NCBI GenBank assembly: GCA_008932965.1
Contig: WBXG01000006.1
Span: 1 to 32,000 of the forward strand
Direction of reading: 5' to 3'
Source of the DNA: Verrucomicrobiota bacterium
Lineage (GTDB): Bacteria; Verrucomicrobiota; Verrucomicrobiia; Chthoniobacterales; UBA6821
Length of the DNA stretch: 32,000 nucleotides
The notes beneath the pieces were generated by a model. That model had not been told where the DNA came from. It made no database searches and worked only from the letters and a program-made list of their open reading frames with translations. The position numbers and the translations under genes are program-made. Below, one piece after another: positions 12,047 to 30,624 of this stretch; the first letter of the stretch is position 1; the number at the start of each line of letters is the position of its first letter.

Positions 12047-13078
12047 CTAAATGGATGGGGGGCTGTTTATTTTCATGACTCGAAAACTTGTATATCCATC
12101 TTTTGTGACTGGCGGTGGAGCTTTTCCTTTTTCGACTTTATCTGTGGTATAGGTAGCTGCATACGCTTTCGGACAAGGATCAGTGCCAGGAACGAGGTAA
12201 TACTGTGTCATCAAATTATGATCGTGATGATACAGTGTATCACTCTGTGTGGTCGGGTTGCCACGGGTTGATGTCCATTCTTTAATTTCTAATTGAGAAT
12301 AAAAGAGTCCATAATTATCATAGAGTCCATTCATGTGGGTTTCATTTTGAGTATTTCCATAATAAAAATCGATTATTGGAAGTGACCACCGTGCACCTTC
12401 CTGTAATGTGATTCCAGTAAACATACTGCGATAGGTATCTCTAGTGGCATTAGCAAATCCACTAAGATAAGCATCATAACCGTTATCAATTTTATAGGCT
12501 CCAGTTTCTGTGGTTTCGTCTCCCTCAGGAGCCGTTGGCTGTCCATGGTGCAGCCAGTTACAGAAACGAGCAGCATCCAGTAAATTGATTCTAGTGATAG
12601 GGAGATCTCCTCTATGTACCTTATAGGATCGACCAGGAACTTCAATCTTCACTTCCGTATTAGGGTCGATCAAATCGTAATGGAATGTTCCATCGTTACG
12701 ACTGCTTTTCTGAATTTTAGCTACATGAGGAGGAGCAGTCTGGCGATGAGTTTTAGGATCAAATTGACCAACAGGATCCTTAGACATATCACTGGAGTAG
12801 AGTCCAAAGGGATCACTTTTTGTTGCTACCGCATTTAAAAAAGCACAATACTCATTGCCGGTAATACAAGATTCTGAGATATAAAAAAAGGGACCGTTTT
12901 GATTAGGTTTACCGTTTTGATCATTCTCTTCGTAAACGGGAATCTGTTTGATTTCAAAAGGGGGTACTAAAACTTCCAGGGGGGGGGAGTGAAGGCTCCT
13001 CAGAAGAGGGGGGGGCTTTAGGATCAGGCGTCGTTGTAGGAGAGTCCTCATTTCCGGAGGCAGGGAGAGAGGAATCAT
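12047..13078 (-). CDS. Formylglycine-generating-enzyme (SUMF1/FGE-sulfatase) domain protein, C-terminal fragment of a frameshifted gene
   Basis: It shows FGE-sulfatase-like motifs: GNEYCAFLNAVATKSDPFGLY, W..P, KEWTSTRG and GYTSFRVMK at the C-terminus. The N-terminal 35 aa are out-of-frame readthrough of the upstream ORF's Pro-rich tail. Confidence 0.7.
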   Translation of the reverse strand: MIPLSLPPEMRTLLQRRLILKPPPLLRSLHSPPLEVLVPPFEIKQIPVYEENDQNGKPNQNGPFFYISESCITGNEYCAFLNAVATKSDPFGLYSSDMSKDPVGQFDPKTHRQTAPPHVAKIQKSSRNDGTFHYDLIDPNTEVKIEVPGRSYKVHRGDLPITRINLLDAARFCNWLHHGQPTAPEGDETTETGAYKIDNGYDAYLSGFANATRDTYRSMFTGITLQEGARWSLPIIDFYYGNTQNETHMNGLYDNYGLFYSQLEIKEWTSTRGNPTTQSDTLYHHDHNLMTQYYLVPGTDPCPKAYAATYTTDKVEKGKAPPPVTKDGYTSFRVMKINSPPSI

Positions 13079-13388
13079 TTTGTTCTATGGTGGTTTCTCC
13101 AAGAGCTGTTGTTGTTGTTTTTATCCACGAACCATTAGCATACGTGGTTAGCTTCACCGATGATCCATCAACATTATCAATCGTTTTTACGGAGGAGCCA
13201 TCAGTCTTAGTGACGGTGGTGATTGTTGTACCATCAGATTTATCAATCCTAGTGACTGTTGATCCATCCGGATTATGAATGATGACTGGCGGAATTACAG
13301 AGGGACCAGAGTCATCTGCAAAAATGGGCGTCATTAGAAAAACAATCCAAAAAAAAGTGATAAAGAAAGAGGTAGGGATTCGATTCAT
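12954..13388 (-). CDS. Signal peptide plus DGS-repeat plus Pro-rich linker, N-terminal fragment of the same frameshifted gene
   Basis: It has a signal peptide (FFITFFWIVFLMTPIFA) and repeated DG(S/T)xV.. units. It ends in a Pro-rich stretch encoded by C8/C9 homopolymers and overlaps the FGE ORF over 12954-13078 in another frame. Confidence 0.6.
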   Translation of the reverse strand: MNRIPTSFFITFFWIVFLMTPIFADDSGPSVIPPVIIHNPDGSTVTRIDKSDGTTITTVTKTDGSSVKTIDNVDGSSVKLTTYANGSWIKTTTTALGETTIEQNDSSLPASGNEDSPTTTPDPKAPPSSEEPSLPPPGSFSTPF

Positions 13389-13404
13389 AAAAATTTTTGG
13401 GTTA

Positions 13405-13672
13405 ACCCGGATATTTCATACTGAATCGTCATGAGGCGCTGCGAATCCTGATGCAGACACCACCAGCGGTCGGGAGACCGCGGGGGAGACTGCCCTGGCT
13501 TTAAGGGGGCAGCACTGAAAGGGCGAGACGAGCGGGAGCAAGCGAGTCAACGAAGGTGATGGATTGTGACGACGGCTGTATGTTTCATACTGCCCGAGGA
13601 GCAATTCGAAGGTCAAGCAGTATCAATCAGGTGTTCGCAAGCCGCAGCAGAATCGGTATGAAATAGGCGGGT
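13405..13672 (+). mobile_element. MITE-like element, full 268-bp copy
   Basis: It is flanked by TA at 13403-13404 and 13673-13674, with termini acccggatatttcatactg ... ggtatgaaataggcgggt. It contains the 95-bp GC-rich internal module. The right-hand TA is part of the TAA stop of the minus-strand lipoprotein gene. Confidence 0.9.
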
Positions 13673-14496
13673 TAAGATTCTGGTGGTTCCAATAGCCTAA
13701 TTTTGGGATCGATCCAGCGGCTATCAGGAAAAATCAGGGGAGGAGTGGTAGTAACGAGGGTTGCTTTTTCTAAAACAAACTCAGGATAAAAAGAATCACT
13801 TGCTGGTTCATACACTTTCTCGCCGGAGAAGTGCCCCTCAAGTTGATACTCATAATTATTATCAGCTCCTATTTGATTTTTTTTTCGGTCAGGAGCTAGC
13901 ATTTTTTGCTCGTTGAACATGACTAATTGAGACCCTTTCCAAGGTTTGCTGGGCTCTTTTACCCAGCCCCACATATGATAGTCGACTTTATAAAAACGAC
14001 GTCCTATGAAGTAGTGACCTGGTGTTTCATTGGCAATGGCCCTCTTAATGGCAGTACGATCAGAGGCATTTTGCTCAACGATGGTTGTGCACCCAGAAAG
14101 AAATAGAAAAAAACCTAACAGTATCCCTAGCCCGAATATTTCATACTGATCGTGACGAGGAGGCCGCGAAAGCTGATGGGGCACCACCGGCGGTCGGGAG
14201 ACCGCGGGGGAGACTGCCCTGGCTTTAAGGGGGCAGCACTGAAAGGGCGAGACGAGCGGGAGCAAGCGAGTCAACGCAGACACATATTTTGACGCAGGGC
14301 TGTGTGTGTACACACTGCCCGAGGAAGACTTCGAGATCAACACAGCATCCATCTGACTTCCCGGTCTCCGCAGTAGATCAGAATGAAATATTTGGGCTAA
14401 AGCAACGAGGAATGGCTGTTGAAAGAATATTCTATCTTTAGAAATTCTTTTTTCATCATGATGACTCTGAGATCGCTCTCGTGGATGATCAGGCAT
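13672..14496 (-). CDS. Hypothetical lipoprotein with a MITE inserted in frame in its signal peptide (effective start uncertain)
   Basis: The ORF is open over 274 codons. A lipobox, LFLSGC, is followed by a 146-aa mature part. Codons 33-122 are the element (ALAQIFHSDLLRRPGSQMDAV...YEIFGL). Confidence 0.6.
   Translation of the reverse strand: MPDHPRERSQSHHDEKRISKDRIFFQQPFLVALAQIFHSDLLRRPGSQMDAVLISKSSSGSVYTHSPASKYVSALTRLLPLVSPFQCCPLKARAVSPAVSRPPVVPHQLSRPPRHDQYEIFGLGILLGFFLFLSGCTTIVEQNASDRTAIKRAIANETPGHYFIGRRFYKVDYHMWGWVKEPSKPWKGSQLVMFNEQKMLAPDRKKNQIGADNNYEYQLEGHFSGEKVYEPASDSFYPEFVLEKATLVTTTPPLIFPDSRWIDPKIRLLEPPES
14130..14397 (+). mobile_element. MITE-like element, full 268-bp copy, intragenic
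   Basis: It is flanked by TA at 14128-14129 and 14398-14399, with termini gcccgaatatttcatactgatc ... gatcagaatgaaatatttgggc. The internal GC-rich module lies at 14182-14276. Confidence 0.92.
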
Positions 14497-14628
14497 TTGA
14501 GAAAATTACTGAGGTGATTCCCCAATGACAAGAGCAACATTTTCTATTAAAAAGTTGCATCACAAAGGTTCGGCTGATATGCGTTCTAACTTAAGTTCAA
14601 AAGCCGTCATTTCACTCTAAAATCAAAT

Positions 14629-15129
14629 ATGTCCATGGAACGTTTTCAAAACTTATTAAAAGATCTTGGGTCAAGCGTTGGGTTGCCTGATTTGAAACCG
14701 AGTGATGATGGTCTTTGCTCTCTTCGCTTTGATGATCGAGTTACTATTGATTTAGAGAGTAATGATGAGACAGGAGCCATGATTTTCTCAAGTATTGTGG
14801 CAACATTATTACCCTATCAAACTGAAAAATTATACCCTGAATTACTTGAAGCCAATCTCCTGTGGGCGGGAACTGGTGGGGCTACTCTAGGTGTTGATCC
14901 TGCAACATTAAGTGTCTTTATGTGCTACCAGGAAAAAATTGAAGGAATGGAATTTCTACGATTTCAAGAGTTGCTTAAAGGCTTCAGCGATGTTGCCCTC
15001 TTTTGGAACAAGCGTCTTCAACAAGGAGAAGAGTCAGAGACGAGCCAAACACCATCTGAATCGGTCTCCCTAACTGAGGTCACTCCTCCTGCTCCTTCTG
15101 CTGCTGGATCGGTGGGGACTTATGCATAG
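14629..15129 (+). CDS. CesT/YbjN-like protein (type III secretion chaperone-like fold)
   Basis: The pattern F..LLKDLG..VGLPDLKPSDDGLCSLRFDD...IDLE......M.FSS.V..LP.....LY.ELLEANLLW..TGGATLGVD is typical of this family. The tail is acidic and Ser-rich. Confidence 0.5.
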   Translation: MSMERFQNLLKDLGSSVGLPDLKPSDDGLCSLRFDDRVTIDLESNDETGAMIFSSIVATLLPYQTEKLYPELLEANLLWAGTGGATLGVDPATLSVFMCYQEKIEGMEFLRFQELLKGFSDVALFWNKRLQQGEESETSQTPSESVSLTEVTPPAPSAAGSVGTYA

Positions 15130-24103: not shown

Positions 24104-27100
24104 GTGAGTACTTCTCCACAACCTCTCTTTTTTGATTGGAAGAACCCCTGGCTACCGCCTCTTGCTACCTATTTGCTGCATACGTGGAATCAAGGAACAA
24201 GCGCTTCTCAAGAGGATCTTTCTTCAACTGTAGTTGTTCTTCCTGGTCGTCGTGCGGGAAGGAGGCTTTTAGAGTTATTGGCATTGGAAGCAGAGAAAGA
24301 GAAATGGAATTTGAATCCTCCTTCTATTGTGACACTACGCGAGGCGGTAACCCTACTGTTGAAACCAAGTGAAAAAACTCTTCCCGAAGCGAGTGGCGTA
24401 TTGCAGCGATTTGCCTGGCGTGAGGCTTTTCGAATGCTTCCGAAGTATCATCGAGATCATATTCAACCTTTTTCTAAGAAGGTCATTCCTCCAAGAAGTA
24501 GTGAGGTGTTGATTGGAATCATAGAATCACTTGCAGAAGAGATCGGAAGTAAGGGGCTTGATTTTCATACTGTGGCAGTTCGAGTGGGAGAGGTTTTTCC
24601 AGAATCTGCAGAACGAGAGCAACCTCGCTGGGAAGCACTTGCTTATCTTCAAAAAACCTACCGCAAGATGATGGCTTCATGGGGATATTCTGATCCTGCC
24701 GACTTTCTACGTTCTTCTCTCACCCATGGAGAAGTGTCCAAGGGTGTTCGAGTACTCGTAGCAGGAGTAGTGGAGGCTCCTCCACTTTTTGAATCTTTTT
24801 TTGAAAAAATAAAGCCCGCAGTGATTATTATTGCACCTAAGGAACATGCGGCAGGCTTTACCAATCATGGATTACTTGTGAAAGAATATTGGTTAGAGCA
24901 TCCACCAGTGATTCAAGATACAGAGCTCCTTCCATGCGAACGAAATGAAGATCAAGCAAAGGAGGTGGTTCGATTAATAACCCCTTTTAAGGATAGGAGA
25001 TCCGAGGTAACTGTTGCTCTCCCAGATTCCTCAACACTCCCCTTACTACAAACTCGGTTGGCACATGTAGGAGTTACAACTCGATGGGCAGGGGGGCTTC
25101 CTTTTCGTGGAGGACGTTTGTATCAACTCTTAAGAGCCATTGCTCATTTTTTAGATCATCACAACTATTCAGGACCAACAATAGCAGCTCTCAGTGCTCT
25201 TGTGCGCCATCCTGATATTTATCCCCATTGCATGGCACCAGAGGCATTTTTAAAAAAACTTGATCTTTTAGAACGTGAGCATCTCCCGCTCTTTTTAGAT
25301 AAGGGAAGTCTTGCTTCTTTCAAAAAAAATGAAGACCTCCTTCTCTGGATAGATGAACTTGAAACCCTCATTGGAATTGGGTCAGAGCCAGTATCGCTAG
25401 AGGAGGGAGCATCGAAATTACGAACTCTTTTGCAACATCTTTTCGGAAAACGGAAGGTACGGGGGAATACTTTTGAGGGGCATTATTTTTTAGGATGCCT
25501 CGAGGAATGCTTACACCTGCTAGATGAAATCGAAGAGATGGGTCCTCATATTTCTGAGCATTTTTCAATGAGTGCCTTTCTAGAAAATCTTCTGGAACTT
25601 CTTAAAGAAAAAAATATCCCAGAACAAGAAGAACCAGAAGCACTCGAATTACTTGGATGGCTAGAGTTGCAGGCTGATGATGCTCCCTATTGCATCATCA
25701 CTTCATGCCACGAAGGATCTTTTCCACAGAGTTTAACATCCAATCCTTTTTTGTCTCAGGGGCTTCGCTCACGTTTGGGTCTTAGTGAGGAGAGTTTGTT
25801 GCTCGCACGTGATCATTATCTTCTTCAAAGTATTATGGCTTCCCGCCAGGTTATCTTGATAGCACCTCGCTACAATGGTCGTGGAGAACCTGCTCGTCCT
25901 AGCCGTCTTTTAATGCTCGGATTGACTTTAGAGGAGTTGCCGCAACGGGTCCTCCAATTAACACAACCTCTCTTAGCCCCGATATTTCATACTGATCGTG
26001 ACGAAGAGACTGCGAAGGCTAATGGAGCGGGAGCGAGCGAGTCAACGCAGGCACGTATTTTGAAGCAGGGCTGTAGGAGTCTGACGCAGCATCCATCTGC
26101 CTTCTCGACCTCCGCAGGTGATCGGTATGAAATATCTGGGCTAAAAGAAGAAAAAATAAAGGAGCGAGCCCTCCCTCATCATGCTTCTCACTTTCATGCA
26201 CGACCTCTCGGTACAGAAAAGGTCACCTGTGTGACAGTGACAGGACTCCGGACCTATTTACAATCACCGCGACTTTTTTATCTCCAGCATGTCCTGCGAC
26301 TTCATGAAGTGGAGGAGGCTCCCCTAGAAATGAATGCTGGTCATTTTGGACGACTCATTCATGAGGTCTTAGGAGCTTTTGGGATGGAAGAAAAAAATAT
26401 CCCGTCAACCGATGCACGAACTTTATCAGAGTGGCTTCGAAGAAAACTTTTTTCTATAGCAGAGCACTATTTTGCTCCAGGACCCTCTCTTCCGATTCAA
26501 TTACAATTGGAGGCCATGGCGGAGACCTTAGATGGCTTTGCACAAGCTCAAGTAGCCCATTACCAGGAGGGATGGAGAATCATTGCAGCTGAAAACAACC
26601 ATTACTCTTCATCCCCAGTGATTGAGGAAAAAATGGCACTCGATGAGGGAGGCTCTCTTCTGTTACAGGGTCGCATTGATCGTATCGATTGGAATTACAA
26701 GCTGAGTCGCTGGATGATTATCGATTATAAAACACGGCACGATCAGGAATGGAGCAATGCCACCCCTGATAGAGAACATTTTCAAAAAAAAGGAGAAAAA
26801 ATTCTTTGGAAAGATCTTCAGCTTCCACTGTATTTAAGACTCTCTGCTCACTGGAAGGCGATTCAGGAATCAGGGCTTCCTGCTCCCACTATTGAGAATA
26901 CCGATCTGTGCTACTTTCAGTTACCCATAGAAACGGAGCAAGCAGGAGTGAGTGAACCATTTGATCCTAAGATGATCCTGCCTGGATGGAATGAAGCACG
27001 TCGTATTATGAAAGCGATCGTAGATGGAAATTTTGATGCACTTGGAACAATCGAAGCCATACGTATGCCTACCCTTGCTGCTCTCTGTGGAATTTCAATA

Positions 27101-27160
27101 CTAGAACCTAAAAAAAATGGGGTGATTCGCTCGGGGAGTGATTCAGAAACTATTGAGTGA
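24104..27160 (+). CDS. addB: AddB-like PD-(D/E)XK nuclease subunit carrying an in-frame MITE
   Basis: The 1018-aa product has a degenerate helicase-like N-terminal half and a C-terminal RecB-type nuclease motif, GRIDRID...IIDYKT. It overlaps the downstream UvrD/AddA-like gene by 4 nt (GTGA). Confidence 0.7.
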   Translation: MSTSPQPLFFDWKNPWLPPLATYLLHTWNQGTSASQEDLSSTVVVLPGRRAGRRLLELLALEAEKEKWNLNPPSIVTLREAVTLLLKPSEKTLPEASGVLQRFAWREAFRMLPKYHRDHIQPFSKKVIPPRSSEVLIGIIESLAEEIGSKGLDFHTVAVRVGEVFPESAEREQPRWEALAYLQKTYRKMMASWGYSDPADFLRSSLTHGEVSKGVRVLVAGVVEAPPLFESFFEKIKPAVIIIAPKEHAAGFTNHGLLVKEYWLEHPPVIQDTELLPCERNEDQAKEVVRLITPFKDRRSEVTVALPDSSTLPLLQTRLAHVGVTTRWAGGLPFRGGRLYQLLRAIAHFLDHHNYSGPTIAALSALVRHPDIYPHCMAPEAFLKKLDLLEREHLPLFLDKGSLASFKKNEDLLLWIDELETLIGIGSEPVSLEEGASKLRTLLQHLFGKRKVRGNTFEGHYFLGCLEECLHLLDEIEEMGPHISEHFSMSAFLENLLELLKEKNIPEQEEPEALELLGWLELQADDAPYCIITSCHEGSFPQSLTSNPFLSQGLRSRLGLSEESLLLARDHYLLQSIMASRQVILIAPRYNGRGEPARPSRLLMLGLTLEELPQRVLQLTQPLLAPIFHTDRDEETAKANGAGASESTQARILKQGCRSLTQHPSAFSTSAGDRYEISGLKEEKIKERALPHHASHFHARPLGTEKVTCVTVTGLRTYLQSPRLFYLQHVLRLHEVEEAPLEMNAGHFGRLIHEVLGAFGMEEKNIPSTDARTLSEWLRRKLFSIAEHYFAPGPSLPIQLQLEAMAETLDGFAQAQVAHYQEGWRIIAAENNHYSSSPVIEEKMALDEGGSLLLQGRIDRIDWNYKLSRWMIIDYKTRHDQEWSNATPDREHFQKKGEKILWKDLQLPLYLRLSAHWKAIQESGLPAPTIENTDLCYFQLPIETEQAGVSEPFDPKMILPGWNEARRIMKAIVDGNFDALGTIEAIRMPTLAALCGISILEPKKNGVIRSGSDSETIE
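25976..26141 (+). mobile_element. MITE-like element, 166-bp copy, intragenic (addB-like)
   Basis: It is flanked by TA at 25974-25975 and 26142-26143, with termini gccccgatatttcatactgatc ... gatcggtatgaaatatctgggc. It is translated in frame as APIFHTDRDEETAKANG...DRYEISGL. Confidence 0.92.
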
Positions 27161-30100
27161 TTATGCCTCTTTTTATTCAACGAGCTTCAGCGGGATCAGG
27201 TAAAACAGAGCAACTTGCACGCCGTTATTTGCAGATTCTTTTGAATAAAGATCTCATGGGCTATGAGGTCGATCCAGTTACAATTGTAGCAGCAACGTTT
27301 ACCCGGGAGGCTGCAGGAGAAATTTTAAATCGTATTTTGAAAATACTTTCGACCGCATGTCTGGATAGATCGGTCTGCCAAAGGATTGTCGAAGAGACAC
27401 CCCTCCCCGTCCCATCACCAATCGAATGCCAACGATTACTCCGACGACTCATGGAGCGCATCGATGAGCTTCGTATTGGAACCATCGATTCCCTTTTCGC
27501 TCAGCAAGCACGTGCTTTTGTATTGGATCTTGGAATAGCCCCTCATTGGGAAATTGCAGATAGTCTGACGGTCCATAAACTGGCCCAAAGAACCTTGCTT
27601 CATCTCTTGAAGTTAGATCCGCTCTTTGCACAAGATTGGAAGATTCTCCACCACTTTCAACGATCCCTTTCCTTGGTGAAAAAAGGGGCTCTTCTTCTTG
27701 AAAAAAATCGTTTTGTCGCACGTCATGAGCTACTCGAAACAACTCCAGAAAAAAAATCTCCTCCACGAAGGGTTTCAAGAGAAGACCAAACATCGATTCA
27801 TCACTTTTTTTCCTCATTTCATATTCCTCTTACTGGTCAGGGAAAACCGAATGGGCATTGGATTGCTGCTATAAAAAAAATAGAAGAGGCTTTTTCTCAA
27901 CCGCTCTATCTCAAGGATGTATTAGACCATAGTCCTCTTTTCTCTCAACTACTTCATGAGGAACCCCGTTTTTATGGAAAAGAAATACCACCAGAATTCA
28001 TTTATTTTTTTTCTCCGTTAATAGAAGCTTCACAAGCTGAACAACAACGCTTGGCCTTACTTCGAGAAGGAGCATTGCATCGGCTTGCACACGATTATCA
28101 CTATCTCCGAAGTGACTATTCCTTTGACGAAGGTCGCTACACTTTTCAAGAAATTGAAGAAATAGTAAGTCTCTCCTCCCAGAAAATATCTAAGGAGGAA
28201 ATCGAATTTCAGATGGACCTCTCTACGGAGCATCTCTTAATTGATGAATATCAGGATACCAGCGAGCGTCAGCATGCCTTTCTCTCTCCTTTGATTGGAG
28301 ATGTGCTCGCAAAGGGAGGGGTTGCCTTTGTGGTTGGAGATGTGAAGCAGGGAATTTATGGATGGCGTGGAGGAAAGCGGCATCTTCTAGGTTCTTTAGA
28401 AAAAGACTACGAATCCTATCTTCAAAAAACCAAGCTTCACCACACAAGTTATCGTTCTAGCCCTGCCATTCTAGCAGCAGTGAATCACGTTTTTGAGGCA
28501 CTCAAAAATTCAGATGTTGTTGAAGGAATGAACGCTGGAGAGCCATTTAAAGAAGCTGCAGCACGCTGGTCGCTTGAATTTGAACCCCAGGTATCAGCTA
28601 CTTCTGTTGTTGGCTTAAAAGGGAGTGTCACGCTTCACAAAATTCCAGTGGCTCCAGGAGAGCTTCAGAATGAGATCATGGAATTGGTTATTCAAAAAGT
28701 AGTGGAGCTAGTAGTAGCTCATCGACGAGAAGATCCATTACGTGAAATTGCAATTCTTGTGAGACGCACGAAATTTATTCCTTCTCTACTTTTGAACTTA
28801 CGAGAGAGTGGAATATTAGCAAGTGGAGAGGGAGGCAATCCACTCGCTGATACGTTGGCTGTTGAGGTGCTCCTCTCCCTACTCTCATGGATGGAGCATC
28901 CAGGAAATTCTGCAGCCTATGAACATGTACACTCATCCCCATTAGGAGATCTGTTAAAAGAACAGGGAGCTTCCCCCTCCACTCAAGGGGCTGCACTACG
29001 TGAACTACTAGTGGATCGGGGTTATGCAACATGCCTGCGTGCCTGGGCCACACGACCGGTTTTTCAAGAGGCATGCAGTGATTATGAAAAGGAACGCCTG
29101 GAACAATTCATAGCAATGGCTTCCCGCTTTGAATTGCTTGGTGGTGGGGCTCCCTCAGATCTTGTGGCACGGGCACGTGAGGAGCGCGTGGAGAGCCCTT
29201 TAAGTCGTGGAGTGAGGGTGCTTAGCATGCATGCTGCCAAGGGGCTCGAGTTTGAAAGTGTTGTTCTCATGGATCTCGACACCTCTATTTTTGGTGGGAG
29301 TGCCCATGCAATGCGTGTTCAAACAACAGATGATGGAAAATTCTTTATTCAGAATAATCGTGAAATGACCTTGCTACAAGGGAGAGAGCATTTATTAAAA
29401 ATCCATCAAGAGGAGCAATGGGAGGAGGCATTGAGCCTCCTTTATGTGGCGATGACACGAGCGATTTGCTTTTTAGATATTGTGCTCATGGACGATGTGA
29501 ACCGGAAAATTCCAAAAAAAAGCATGGCAGGATGGCTACGTGTCTCTGGGCTTGAAGACCATCAACATGATGGTCTTTCGTTACGCGAGCAAAGAACAAA
29601 AACAGCTCTAGCCCCCATATTTCATACCGATCTACTACGGAAGCCGGGAAGTCAGATGGATGCTGCGTTGAGCTCGAAGTCTTCCTCGGGCAGTAGGGAC
29701 TCATACAGCCCTGCGTCAAAATATGTGTCTGCGTTGACTTGCTCGCTCCCGCTCGTCTCGCCCTTTCAGGGCTGCCCCCTTAAAGCCAGGGCAGTCTCCA
29801 CCGCGGTCTCCCGACCGCCGGTGGTGCCCCATCAGCTTTCGCAGCCTCCTCTTCACGATCAGAATAAAATATGCGGGCTAGAAAGTAATAGTGATAAGAA
29901 AAAGCCGTGTTCGTTCGAGGTAACCTCACTTCAAAGGTCTCCACTATTGCTGAAGCGAACCCCCTCCAAAGAAAATCAAAAAGGGCTTCATGCGTTATCT
30001 GACTATTTTTATGATCGGAAAGCCCGTTCCTATGGAATCGTCCAGCATCGTGCACTAGCTCAGATAGAATGGATTAACAGGACTGCATCTCATCCATTGA

Positions 30101-30441
30101 ACGAAATACTAGAGAAGAAAGAAGATCATGCTGTTTTTGATGAGGAGTATTTTTTCTCTAAATGGAAAAAATGGGGAATTACCACATTGGAGGTCTGGAG
30201 GGAGCGGCGCTTTGCTGTGATTCAAAAAAACGAACTACTCGTAGGGACTTTTGATCGAGTTATTATAGGTTCCCTTGAAAAACCCATGGTGGCTGAAATC
30301 GTCGATTTTAAAACAGCTCCAGCCCAGGACAAAGAGCGACGTTGTCATCACTACGAGCTGCAGCTCGAGGAGTATCGAAAGGCTCTTCAACATTTGCTTC
30401 CAACATTAAGACACATTGAAACAAAAGTTGTTTGGATTTAA
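27157..30441 (+). CDS. addA: AddA-like UvrD-family helicase-nuclease carrying an in-frame MITE
   Basis: It has Walker A (ASAGSGKTEQL), DEYQDT, YRSSP, HAAKGLEFESVVL and LLYVAMTRA motifs, and a C-terminal nuclease motif GTFDRV...IVDFKT. Confidence 0.8.
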   Translation: MIMPLFIQRASAGSGKTEQLARRYLQILLNKDLMGYEVDPVTIVAATFTREAAGEILNRILKILSTACLDRSVCQRIVEETPLPVPSPIECQRLLRRLMERIDELRIGTIDSLFAQQARAFVLDLGIAPHWEIADSLTVHKLAQRTLLHLLKLDPLFAQDWKILHHFQRSLSLVKKGALLLEKNRFVARHELLETTPEKKSPPRRVSREDQTSIHHFFSSFHIPLTGQGKPNGHWIAAIKKIEEAFSQPLYLKDVLDHSPLFSQLLHEEPRFYGKEIPPEFIYFFSPLIEASQAEQQRLALLREGALHRLAHDYHYLRSDYSFDEGRYTFQEIEEIVSLSSQKISKEEIEFQMDLSTEHLLIDEYQDTSERQHAFLSPLIGDVLAKGGVAFVVGDVKQGIYGWRGGKRHLLGSLEKDYESYLQKTKLHHTSYRSSPAILAAVNHVFEALKNSDVVEGMNAGEPFKEAAARWSLEFEPQVSATSVVGLKGSVTLHKIPVAPGELQNEIMELVIQKVVELVVAHRREDPLREIAILVRRTKFIPSLLLNLRESGILASGEGGNPLADTLAVEVLLSLLSWMEHPGNSAAYEHVHSSPLGDLLKEQGASPSTQGAALRELLVDRGYATCLRAWATRPVFQEACSDYEKERLEQFIAMASRFELLGGGAPSDLVARAREERVESPLSRGVRVLSMHAAKGLEFESVVLMDLDTSIFGGSAHAMRVQTTDDGKFFIQNNREMTLLQGREHLLKIHQEEQWEEALSLLYVAMTRAICFLDIVLMDDVNRKIPKKSMAGWLRVSGLEDHQHDGLSLREQRTKTALAPIFHTDLLRKPGSQMDAALSSKSSSGSRDSYSPASKYVSALTCSLPLVSPFQGCPLKARAVSTAVSRPPVVPHQLSQPPLHDQNKICGLESNSDKKKPCSFEVTSLQRSPLLLKRTPSKENQKGLHALSDYFYDRKARSYGIVQHRALAQIEWINRTASHPLNEILEKKEDHAVFDEEYFFSKWKKWGITTLEVWRERRFAVIQKNELLVGTFDRVIIGSLEKPMVAEIVDFKTAPAQDKERRCHHYELQLEEYRKALQHLLPTLRHIETKVVWI
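29611..29878 (-). mobile_element. MITE-like element, full 268-bp copy, intragenic (addA-like)
   Basis: It is flanked by TA at 29609-29610 and 29879-29880, with termini gcccccatatttcataccgatc ... gatcagaataaaatatgcgggc. It contains the GC-rich module in reverse orientation. Confidence 0.92.
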
Positions 30442-30614
30442 CCCGCATATTTCATACCAATCACCTGTGGAGATCGGGTCAGATAGATGATGCGTTCATC
30501 TCAAAGTCTTCCTCAGGCAGTGTGTACACGCGCATATGTCGTCAGACTTCATCGCTCGTCTTGCCCTATCAGCCTCGAGACCTCCTAGTCACGATCAGTA
30601 TGAAATATCCTGGC
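30441..30614 (-). mobile_element. MITE-like element, 174-bp copy
   Basis: It is flanked by TA at 30439-30440 (the first two bases of the addA-like TAA stop) and 30615-30616, with termini acccgcatatttcatacc ... gatcagtatgaaatatcctggc. Confidence 0.88.
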
Positions 30615-30624
30615 TAACCCCAGA

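Follow-up and report, generated by a model that had tools for sequence, protein, structure and literature searches.

The present analysis concerns a stretch of 32,000 nucleotides (nt) from a Verrucomicrobiota bacterium of the order Chthoniobacterales (contig WBXG01000006.1, positions 1 to 32,000; hereafter, the window), in which a lipoprotein gene encoded on the minus strand (13672..14496) harbors a miniature inverted-repeat transposable element (MITE; 14128..14399, minus strand). That this element belongs to a coding-compatible family and was inserted in frame, at a TTAG sequence in the hydrophobic region (h-region) of the lipoprotein signal peptide, is secure. According to the reading that we favor, with a probability of roughly 0.55, translation would proceed from the native ATG through the element, yielding a cleavable leader of 135 residues and an unchanged mature protein.

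The lipoprotein open reading frame (ORF) extends from ATG to TAA, encodes 274 amino acids (aa) and stays open throughout the element, and it comprises 32 native leader codons, 90 inserted codons, the h-region, the lipobox and a mature domain of 139 aa. The native start (ATG, 14496-14494) and the native n-region codons, MPDHPRERSQSHHDEKRISKDRIFFQQPFLVA, occupy 14400..14496 (minus strand). The inserted copy spans 272 nt (TA + 268 + TA), was recognized by its repeat matches, its hairpin and the corresponding empty sites in the related loci L005 and L099, and represents a net gain of 270 nt, or 90 codons, placed at the TTA of codon 33 within the hydrophobic core, where the junction reads ..CTC GTT GCT T[TA-element-TA] GGG ATA.. 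along the ORF. The original prediction for this locus, namely that the minus-strand frame remains open through a 268-bp element plus TA (270 bp, 90 codons), was borne out in its coordinates, as was the proposal that excision restores a normal precursor with n-region, h-region and lipobox: in silico removal of the MITE gives ..PFLVALGILLGFFLFLSGC (also given as ..QQPFLVALGILLGFFLFLSGC), which aligns with the short signal peptide and L-[ST]-G-C lipobox of orthologues of ~160 aa. Further, the location of the insertion at a TA within the hydrophobic core agrees with the empty sites; TA is indeed present at the target, but the target itself is better described as YTAR (Y, pyrimidine; R, purine), and the duplication may be of 4 bp.

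The C-terminal 139 residues of the product correspond to a family of proteins of ~160 aa distributed in genomes and metagenomes of Verrucomicrobiota/Chthoniobacterales (234 matches, the best with E values of 1e-113 to 1e-62), whose ordinary members carry signal peptides of 18-29 residues ending in L-[ST]-G-C. The lipobox of the window gene is FLSGC, and its Cys is invariant in 25/25 and 91/91 aligned homologues. No match for the lipoprotein was obtained in Pfam/NCBIfam at E <= 0.01 or in PDB sequence searches, while an AF2 model (pLDDT 86.5) displays a small beta-barrel with weak resemblance to the OB-fold (TM ~0.3); the YceK label assigned by JGI to two cluster members is thus unsupported. 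The comparison with insert-free orthologues, suggested as a check in the original prediction, located the uninterrupted site in L005 (..ATT GTT ATT TTA GGG ATG..) and in L099 (..ATT GTC ATT TTA GGA ATG..). A sister strain (L001-L004), whose DNA is 99.2% identical to the window, displays identical insertion junctions, and altogether 7 contigs, representing at least 4 independent assemblies or samples and 4 protein alleles, carry the insertion with its 274-aa product; the insertion is present in every allele seen. These observations bear on the explanation that a repeat copy was misjoined into the gene during metagenome assembly. Such an artefact could be suspected from the highly repetitive nature of the family, of which the 32-kb window contains 14 or more copies or fragments, and from the differences between the window and L001, which are more frequent in MITE copies than in the DNA around them and could reflect collapsed repeats; however, identical junctions recovered on all these contigs, together with a clean target duplication relative to the orthologous empty site, make a misjoin very improbable.

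The ends of the inserted copy are imperfect inverted repeats of ~25 nt, with TAGCCCAAATATTTCATTCTGATC pairing with GATCAGTATGAAATATTCGGGCTA, and its RNA is predicted to fold into one long hairpin (-107.4 kcal/mol, z = -4.8 relative to shuffled sequences). Its closest sister is a 273-nt match at 29609-29881 of the window (91.6% identity, E 6e-111), followed by the copy at 13403-13628, matching at 84%; these repeat matches are far beyond chance. The element is a non-autonomous transposable element, i.e., a MITE, with terminal inverted repeats (TIRs) of ~25 bp, the family TIR being CCCGNATATTTCATACYGATC. Within 699 kb of fetched DNA, comprising DNA of four Chthoniobacterales metagenome-assembled genomes (MAGs) and of the window lineage, 153 paired copies were recognized, 144 of them non-redundant. 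The family-bearing MAGs, identified by scanning one genome per species for the TIR pattern, all correspond to Chthoniobacterales ('Spartobacteria'), namely Kiruna_bin-02438, Tobar2m-G38, Deming_bin.170 and SMAG_U8253, and the same scan in other phyla gave single matches only, at chance level. Copy sizes range from 64 to 403 nt and cluster mainly at 182 and 272 nt, which correspond to net insertions of 180 and 270 nt, and the net length is a multiple of three in 84/144 copies. The sole open frame of the family encodes a low-complexity peptide, and no transposase gene is contained in the copies. TIR pairs located 600-2500 bp apart were sought in the 699 kb as an indication of an autonomous partner, and none encloses a transposase, whole genomes not having been included in this search; a 1004-bp candidate insertion sequence in L009 was rejected as the autonomous partner, as it encodes a low-complexity protein and no transposase. 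In addition, the whole window returned no match in Rfam at gathering thresholds, so the element is no known structured RNA, and BLASTN of the element against a plasmid collection gave no match. Metagenome scans for excised and occupied junctions recovered zero of each, a result that is uninformative on polymorphism, the species being without an exact match in the collection.

The flanks of the copies define the target. A pyrimidine precedes the left TA in 138/144 copies and a purine follows the right TA in 140/143, so that ~96% of the copies are flanked by Y-TA-R 4-mers and ~95% have TA at both ends. The left and right 4-mers are identical in 86/143 copies; taken singly, either outer base agrees with its counterpart in 78-81% of the cases, compared to ~50% expected. 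From these flanks, the target is YTAR, and the co-variation of the left and right outer bases points to a duplication that is probably of 4 bp, resembling IS5, rather than of TA alone, as in IS630. The copy in the lipoprotein gene is flanked by TTAG and CTAG, which are not identical; its net insertion length is the same with a 2-bp or a 4-bp duplication. Within this same gene, related genomes have different sites occupied.

One stop-free frame exists in each orientation of the element, namely that with TA in codon positions 2-3, the other frames being closed by the terminal TAG or TAA and by the TGA within CTGATC. For the 84 copies with a net length divisible by three, this frame is open in 62/84 as listed and in 44/84 as reverse complement, each of the other four frames being open in at most 1/84. 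The combination of a single open frame with net lengths of 180 or 270 nt means that a copy with TA at codon positions 2-3 adds 60 or 90 codons and leaves the frame of its host unbroken; in the lipoprotein gene, the element is accordingly read as (L)AQIFHSDLL...RHDQYEIFGL. This coding-compatible nature of the family, as well as the in-frame GTG codons 104 and 105 inside the element, had been overlooked in the original prediction.

The lipoprotein gene is one of several hosts with an in-frame copy. Eleven of the 144 copies are embedded in ORFs that continue for 60 codons or more in both directions, and 11/11 share the same phase and 11/11 have net lengths that are multiples of three. In the window, one copy (29609..29880, plus strand) is located in-frame in addA (ORF 27157-30441), between the UvrD_C and PD-(D/E)XK domains of an AddA-like helicase-nuclease, with the same orientation and frame as the copy in the lipoprotein gene; another, of 170 nt (25974..26143, plus strand), is located in-frame in addB (ORF 24104-27160), just before the PD-(D/E)XK domain of an AddB-like nuclease. 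The addA and addB copies have opposite orientations relative to their host genes. In the other MAGs, the long-ORF hosts include glnD, a second addB site, a PMT-family glycosyltransferase, an ABC permease and an EEP-family nuclease. The TAR codon phase is impossible inside an ORF for a YTAR site, and it was seen only at stop codons. Two such cases are present in the window: a second MITE copy of 272 nt (13403..13674, minus strand) occupies the TA of the TAA of the lipoprotein gene itself, and another copy (30439..30616) occupies the TA of the TAA of addA, the stop being regenerated in both by the first base of the element. The former is separated by 14 nt from the ATG (13388) that starts the following gene, the uninterrupted junction being found in L005. 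This 272-nt hairpin thus separates two probably co-transcribed genes.

The leader of the lipoprotein gene has been hit repeatedly, with at least six independent insertions in related lineages. Besides the forward copy at codon 33 in the window, L006 carries a forward copy at codon 2 (net 258 nt), and L008 carries at the same TA a reverse 87-bp copy (net 85 nt) that breaks the frame; these two were considered, for dating, as one old shared insertion, which was rejected on account of their opposite orientations, indicative of independent events. At codon 5, L005 (2181-2560) contains a forward copy into which a reverse copy has in turn inserted, hence two events, which places the Cys of its product P0002 at residue 179, whereas the copy at codon 5 of L099 (1174-1530) is reverse and places the Cys at residue 120. 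The frame is open from the native ATG to the lipobox in 5/6 of these leader insertions, the chance of which is ~1e-4 to 3e-3 in a post hoc estimate based on the family's own length and openness frequencies and a phase prior of 1/3 to 1/2. In the exception, L008, the native ATG has been lost, and an in-frame ATG 45 codons before the Cys has arisen by a point mutation within the TIR (CATACTGATC to CATGCTGATC). From five frame-keeping insertions and this exception, read-through from the native start appears to be the usual way in which the gene tolerates the element, with a MITE-supplied start being also demonstrated by L008. The 146-aa protein P0016 was considered as an out-of-frame counter-example and rejected, since it has no MITE in its coding region, its native leader has 58 residues, and its gene call is too short.

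The 274-aa product has a single hydrophobic segment (residues 118-141), and the core IFGLGILLGFFLFL precedes a lipobox that the insertion left untouched, with Cys136 encoded at 14091-14089. This regenerated core and the lipobox correspond to codons 119-136, EIFGLGILLGFFLFLSGC (14089..14142, minus strand), of which the first 4 residues derive from the element: the TIR-coded residues at its end (..YEIFGL) take the place of the displaced PFLVA, rebuilding a core of 14-16 residues directly before the lipobox. The mean Kyte-Doolittle hydropathy of the best 15-residue window, IFGLGILLGFFLFLS, is 2.48, relative to 2.91 for FLVALGILLGFFLFL before the insertion. The 90 inserted residues include 10 K+R and 4 D+E (net charge +6), 4 His, 14 Ser and 11 Pro, and the net charge of the whole leader is +8; the MITE-coded part has no confident predicted structure (pLDDT <50). 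Judging from this composition, the inserted peptide would suit a cytoplasmic n-region under the positive-inside rule.

In the reading that we favor, the gene would still be expressed from the native ATG (14496), probably from a leaderless mRNA, and ribosomes would read through the element to produce a 135-residue leader, in which the polar native n-region is followed by the basic, Ser/Pro-rich and presumably unstructured MITE peptide. This leader would end in a core formed by the IFGL of the element and the native GILLGFFLFL, followed by the intact lipobox LSGC. The single hydrophobic segment may then act as an internal signal anchor with N-in topology, targeted presumably in a co-translational manner via the signal recognition particle (SRP) and Sec, and Lgt together with signal peptidase II would process the precursor at Cys136. 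As the whole MITE-bearing leader would be discarded and the mature protein would be unchanged, the insertion could be almost neutral, carried along in a segment that the protein can dispense with. Among the functional options listed in the original prediction (abolished export, a non-canonical start, or an unusual internal signal), the last is the best supported, and abolished export is not favored, given that the core is regenerated, members of the family are found in-frame in addA, addB, glnD and further long ORFs, the frame is kept in 5/6 leader insertions and the invariant residues are retained.

The upstream region points to the native ATG as the start. A promoter-like block (14503..14531, minus strand), formed by TTGTCA (14531-14526) and TAATTT (14508-14503) separated by 17 nt, ends 6 nt before the ATG, and it is kept in the window, L001, L005, L099, L006, L007 (which has a GTG start) and L101; more distant orthologues have other upstream arrangements. 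An ATG is found at the matching place after this conserved block in 6/7 of the orthologous lineages compared (8 loci). The block resembles a -35/-10 pair, which suggests that transcription starts at or beside the ATG and that the mRNA is leaderless or near-leaderless. Shine-Dalgarno-like 4-mers were not enriched upstream of 342 long ORFs from the window and related loci, and such motifs therefore cannot rank the start candidates in this clade; their near absence leaves GC-rich starts inside the element lacking obvious support. Upstream of the same 342 ORFs, TANNNT hexamers are enriched about threefold at 6-9 nt before the first ATGs, which hints at frequent leaderless or Shine-Dalgarno-independent initiation, although this excess is modest and not established genome-wide. 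A promoter and terminator scan of 13300-14800 detected no outward promoter-like site in the element, with counts not above those of shuffled sequences.

The in-frame start candidates are ATG1 (14496), the ATG of M49 (14350..14352, minus strand), which is borne by the element and conforms to the family consensus ..GSQMDAA.., and the consecutive GTG codons 104-105 inside the element (14182..14187, minus strand), located 33 and 32 codons before the Cys, plus an ATG125 present in the sister strain L001 only, where the window has ATA. In line with the original prediction, the window has no in-frame ATG between the element and Cys136, M49 is the single internal Met of the leader, and the ATG borne by the TIR (ATG AAA TAT TCG GGC TAG) is out of frame and meets a stop immediately. 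Public gene calls for the lipoprotein use four starts, with products of 274, 226, 171 and 150 aa: the 226-aa NCBI records P0123 and P0124 (MDH4469644.1) start at M49, and the 171-aa JGI call P0125 starts at the GTG 104-105 site. Moreover, the public starts of relatives (P0130 and likewise P0016) leave 8-9 residues before the Cys, which is implausibly short. Four public starts for one gene, along with such leaders in relatives, indicate that MITE-rich MAGs will carry systematic misannotation of start codons and signal peptides. The first ATGs of two other ORFs of the window, proS (145) and a TPR-protein (21626), lie within a MITE terminal repeat or remnant (..GAAATATGCGGGCTAG.. and ..CCGGATATTTCATATG..); these are either over-extended ORFs or start codons supplied by a TIR, as in L008.

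These candidates allow for a second explanation, in which the gene works with translation starting inside the element, the MITE supplying the start codon and the n-region and the native ATG being irrelevant. Initiation at GTG104/105 would give MVPHQLSRPPRHDQYE-IFGLGILLGFFLFL-SGC, a signal peptide of 32-33 residues and thus of normal size, with the Cys at 32-33, close to the normal range; ATG49 is the other candidate. Both GTG104/105 and ATG49 are in-frame and kept in the sister strain, the public gene calls of 226 and 171 aa already use such starts, and L008 represents a precedent in the same gene, in which the TIR-borne ATG is the sole usable start and the native ATG has decayed. Nevertheless, internal initiation leaves unexplained why 5/6 insertions keep the frame from the native ATG, and in the window the native ATG and the conserved upstream block are intact. 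In addition, GTG104/105 lie in the GC-rich 3' arm of the -107 kcal/mol hairpin without a purine-rich or AT-rich upstream context, the n-region obtained from GTG104 has a net charge of 0, and GGTGGTG is the family consensus, displaying no local adaptation. Overall, we regard a start within the element as unlikely for the window gene.

Several points also weigh against read-through from the native ATG. Counted from this start, the Cys is residue 136, which is outside the usual range of ~15-35 and far from the 18-29 of ordinary insert-free orthologues, and a 135-residue leader is, to our knowledge, beyond anything demonstrated for Lgt/LspA substrates. In favor of read-through, however, leaders of this clade are already long when free of MITEs, with lengths of 46-59 (46 in the window and 59 in L005 and L099 after excision, and 58 in L101). 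On the other side, a hairpin this stable (-107 kcal/mol) within the coding sequence might impede translation or make the transcript a target of RNase III. As for the promoter-like block, TAATTT has only 3/6 matches to the Escherichia coli consensus TATAAT, and the promoter scan did not flag it. Finally, the substitutions between the window and L001 sum to 10 nonsynonymous and 4 synonymous over the whole ORF, relative to 5 and 19 in eight neighboring genes together (Fisher p = 0.005). Restricted to the mature part, there are 4 of each kind, with a ratio of nonsynonymous to synonymous rates (dN/dS) of 0.26, a result that fits neither strict constraint (p = 0.09) nor neutrality (p = 0.07), and one of the replacements in the window allele, G183S, affects a position that is at least 90% conserved.

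The substitution pattern, the G183S change at a nearly invariant site and the distance of the Cys from the ATG are also the grounds for a third explanation, namely that export is abolished or crippled in a gene that has recently become a pseudogene or experiences relaxed selection; its open frame would then be no more than the state of a recent 270-nt insertion in its open phase before decay sets in. The sequences have diverged by only ~1-2% since fixation, so that an ORF still intact says little about function, and the downstream gene is frameshifted at a poly-C run, indicating some decay, or a sequencing error, at the locus. However, the nonsynonymous excess resides mainly in the native leader and MITE (5 nonsynonymous and 0 synonymous), which should be unconstrained under any model; the mature part alone does not differ significantly from the neighbors (p = 0.18), and 3/4 of its replacements are at family-variable positions. 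Moreover, the mature domain of the window gene keeps 56/56 family-invariant residues, the lipobox and hydrophobic core are intact, and the insertion is fixed in all alleles seen. Over the long term, the dN/dS of the family is 0.04-0.13, and that of the lineages with comparable leader insertions (L005, L099, L006 and L008) is 0.05-0.13, showing that their mature domains remain constrained. The substitution counts are too few to separate the readings or to decide on current function, some relaxation being possible, and on the whole of this evidence we give loss of export a low probability.

Extending the read-through interpretation to the family, we tentatively propose, at odds somewhat below even, that the MITE peptide is translated as part of a working signal peptide, that leaders of 119-178 residues (135 in the window, 119 in L099, and 178 in P0002 with its two nested copies) are still targeted, lipidated and cleaved, and that the element has been selected for coding compatibility, with its net lengths of 180/270 nt, its one open frame per orientation and its hydrophobic ..EI(F/S)GL ends. 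If this were true, cleavable leaders would constitute a safe harbor for selfish DNA, and they would provide a natural series of n-region lengths for the study of recognition by Sec/SRP and Lgt/LspA. The six or more independent and nearly always in-frame hits represent a natural experiment on the length and arbitrariness of the lipoprotein n-region.

Other features of the locus were also recorded. The gene downstream of the lipoprotein gene encodes 457 aa and is intact in L001, with a weak sub-threshold match to an FGE-sulfatase-like domain; in the window it is split into overlapping ORFs (12954-13388 and 12047-13078; region ~12950-13390) by one extra C in a poly-C run (C9 relative to C8 in L001), which could reflect a sequencing error, phase variation or decay, and it further has a 33-bp indel in a Ser/Thr/Gly-rich tandem-repeat region. 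Divergent from the lipoprotein gene, positions 14629-15129 encode a homologue of CesT/SicP-like type III secretion chaperones (Pfam CesT, E 4e-17), an ORF that overlaps the start of kdsA (15122), upstream of lptC-lptA-lptB-hprK-ptsH. This pairing is kept in all related loci and is unexpected in a free-living freshwater verrucomicrobial lineage. Just after proS (1777-1896), two 55-nt direct repeats, 85% identical and 65 nt apart, are unrelated to the MITE family, and each of them holds its own inverted repeat (AACGGGCCGCTG..CAGCGGCCCG).

Full-text literature searches found no report of such a MITE family in Verrucomicrobia, nor of a MITE inside a signal peptide, and the family appears to be undescribed. 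In-frame MITEs themselves are already known: the Rickettsia palindromic elements (RPEs) are found in-frame in unrelated protein-coding genes, where the encoded peptide is tolerated (Ogata et al., 2000, as summarised in PMC10969869). As far as that summary describes them, RPEs resemble the present family in being short hairpin-forming repeats with a stop-free frame and in their repeated in-frame insertion in unrelated genes. Conversely, they belong to another phylum, and the family in Verrucomicrobiota (Chthoniobacterales) has TIRs of ~25 bp, a YTAR duplication and a cut-and-paste anatomy. RPE-like denotes here a functional class and not a homology family, nothing pointing to a kinship in sequence, although no comparison aimed at it was made; furthermore, the insertion in the window lies in a cleavable signal peptide, and the mature protein would thus be without the extra peptide. 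With this family, the phenomenon known from RPEs extends to an unrelated phylum, and coding-compatible repeats become connected with conventional cut-and-paste MITEs. Sporadic in-frame fusions have also been described for intragenic ERIC, BOX and other MITEs (Delihas, 2007; PMC10969869). As in our case, these consist of MITE-borne ORFs fused in-frame to host genes, but they are sporadic, whereas the present family is coding-compatible in both size classes and both orientations, and one leader has been struck six times.

In terms of anatomy, two groups of elements are relevant. TA-duplicating MITEs attributed to elements of the IS630/Tc1-mariner type include the Correia elements of Neisseria and the pneumococcal RUP, which are mostly intergenic and act through promoter, terminator or RNase III effects. 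They share with the present family the TA at both ends, TIRs of ~25 nt, a size of 100-300 bp, a high copy number and a hairpin transcript; in contrast to their mostly intergenic location, ~8% of the copies of our family are translated within long ORFs, and in most copies the flanks point to a YTAR duplication of 4 bp, closer to the IS5 group. Elements of the IS5 group and their MITEs use a YTAR target with a 4-bp duplication, in agreement with the Y-TA-R flanks (~96%) and identical 4-mers (86/143) of the present family. They differ in that 40% of the present copies, including that of the lipoprotein gene, have no identical 4-mers, and in that the fetched DNA yielded no IS5-type transposase associated with these TIRs.

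With respect to the host protein, extended signal peptides are known from autotransporters (the extended signal peptide region, ESPR) and from the long Tat leaders of lipoproteins, in which the extensions comprise ~25-30 residues and are conserved. Similar to these, the leader in the window has an N-terminal extension before an ordinary h-region and cleavage site, but it would reach 135 residues (178 in P0002), and the extension consists of selfish DNA. Taken together, the new aspects relative to these systems are the phylum, the classical anatomy of TIRs and YTAR target, the cleavable leader as the insertion site and the fact that one and the same leader was hit independently several times.

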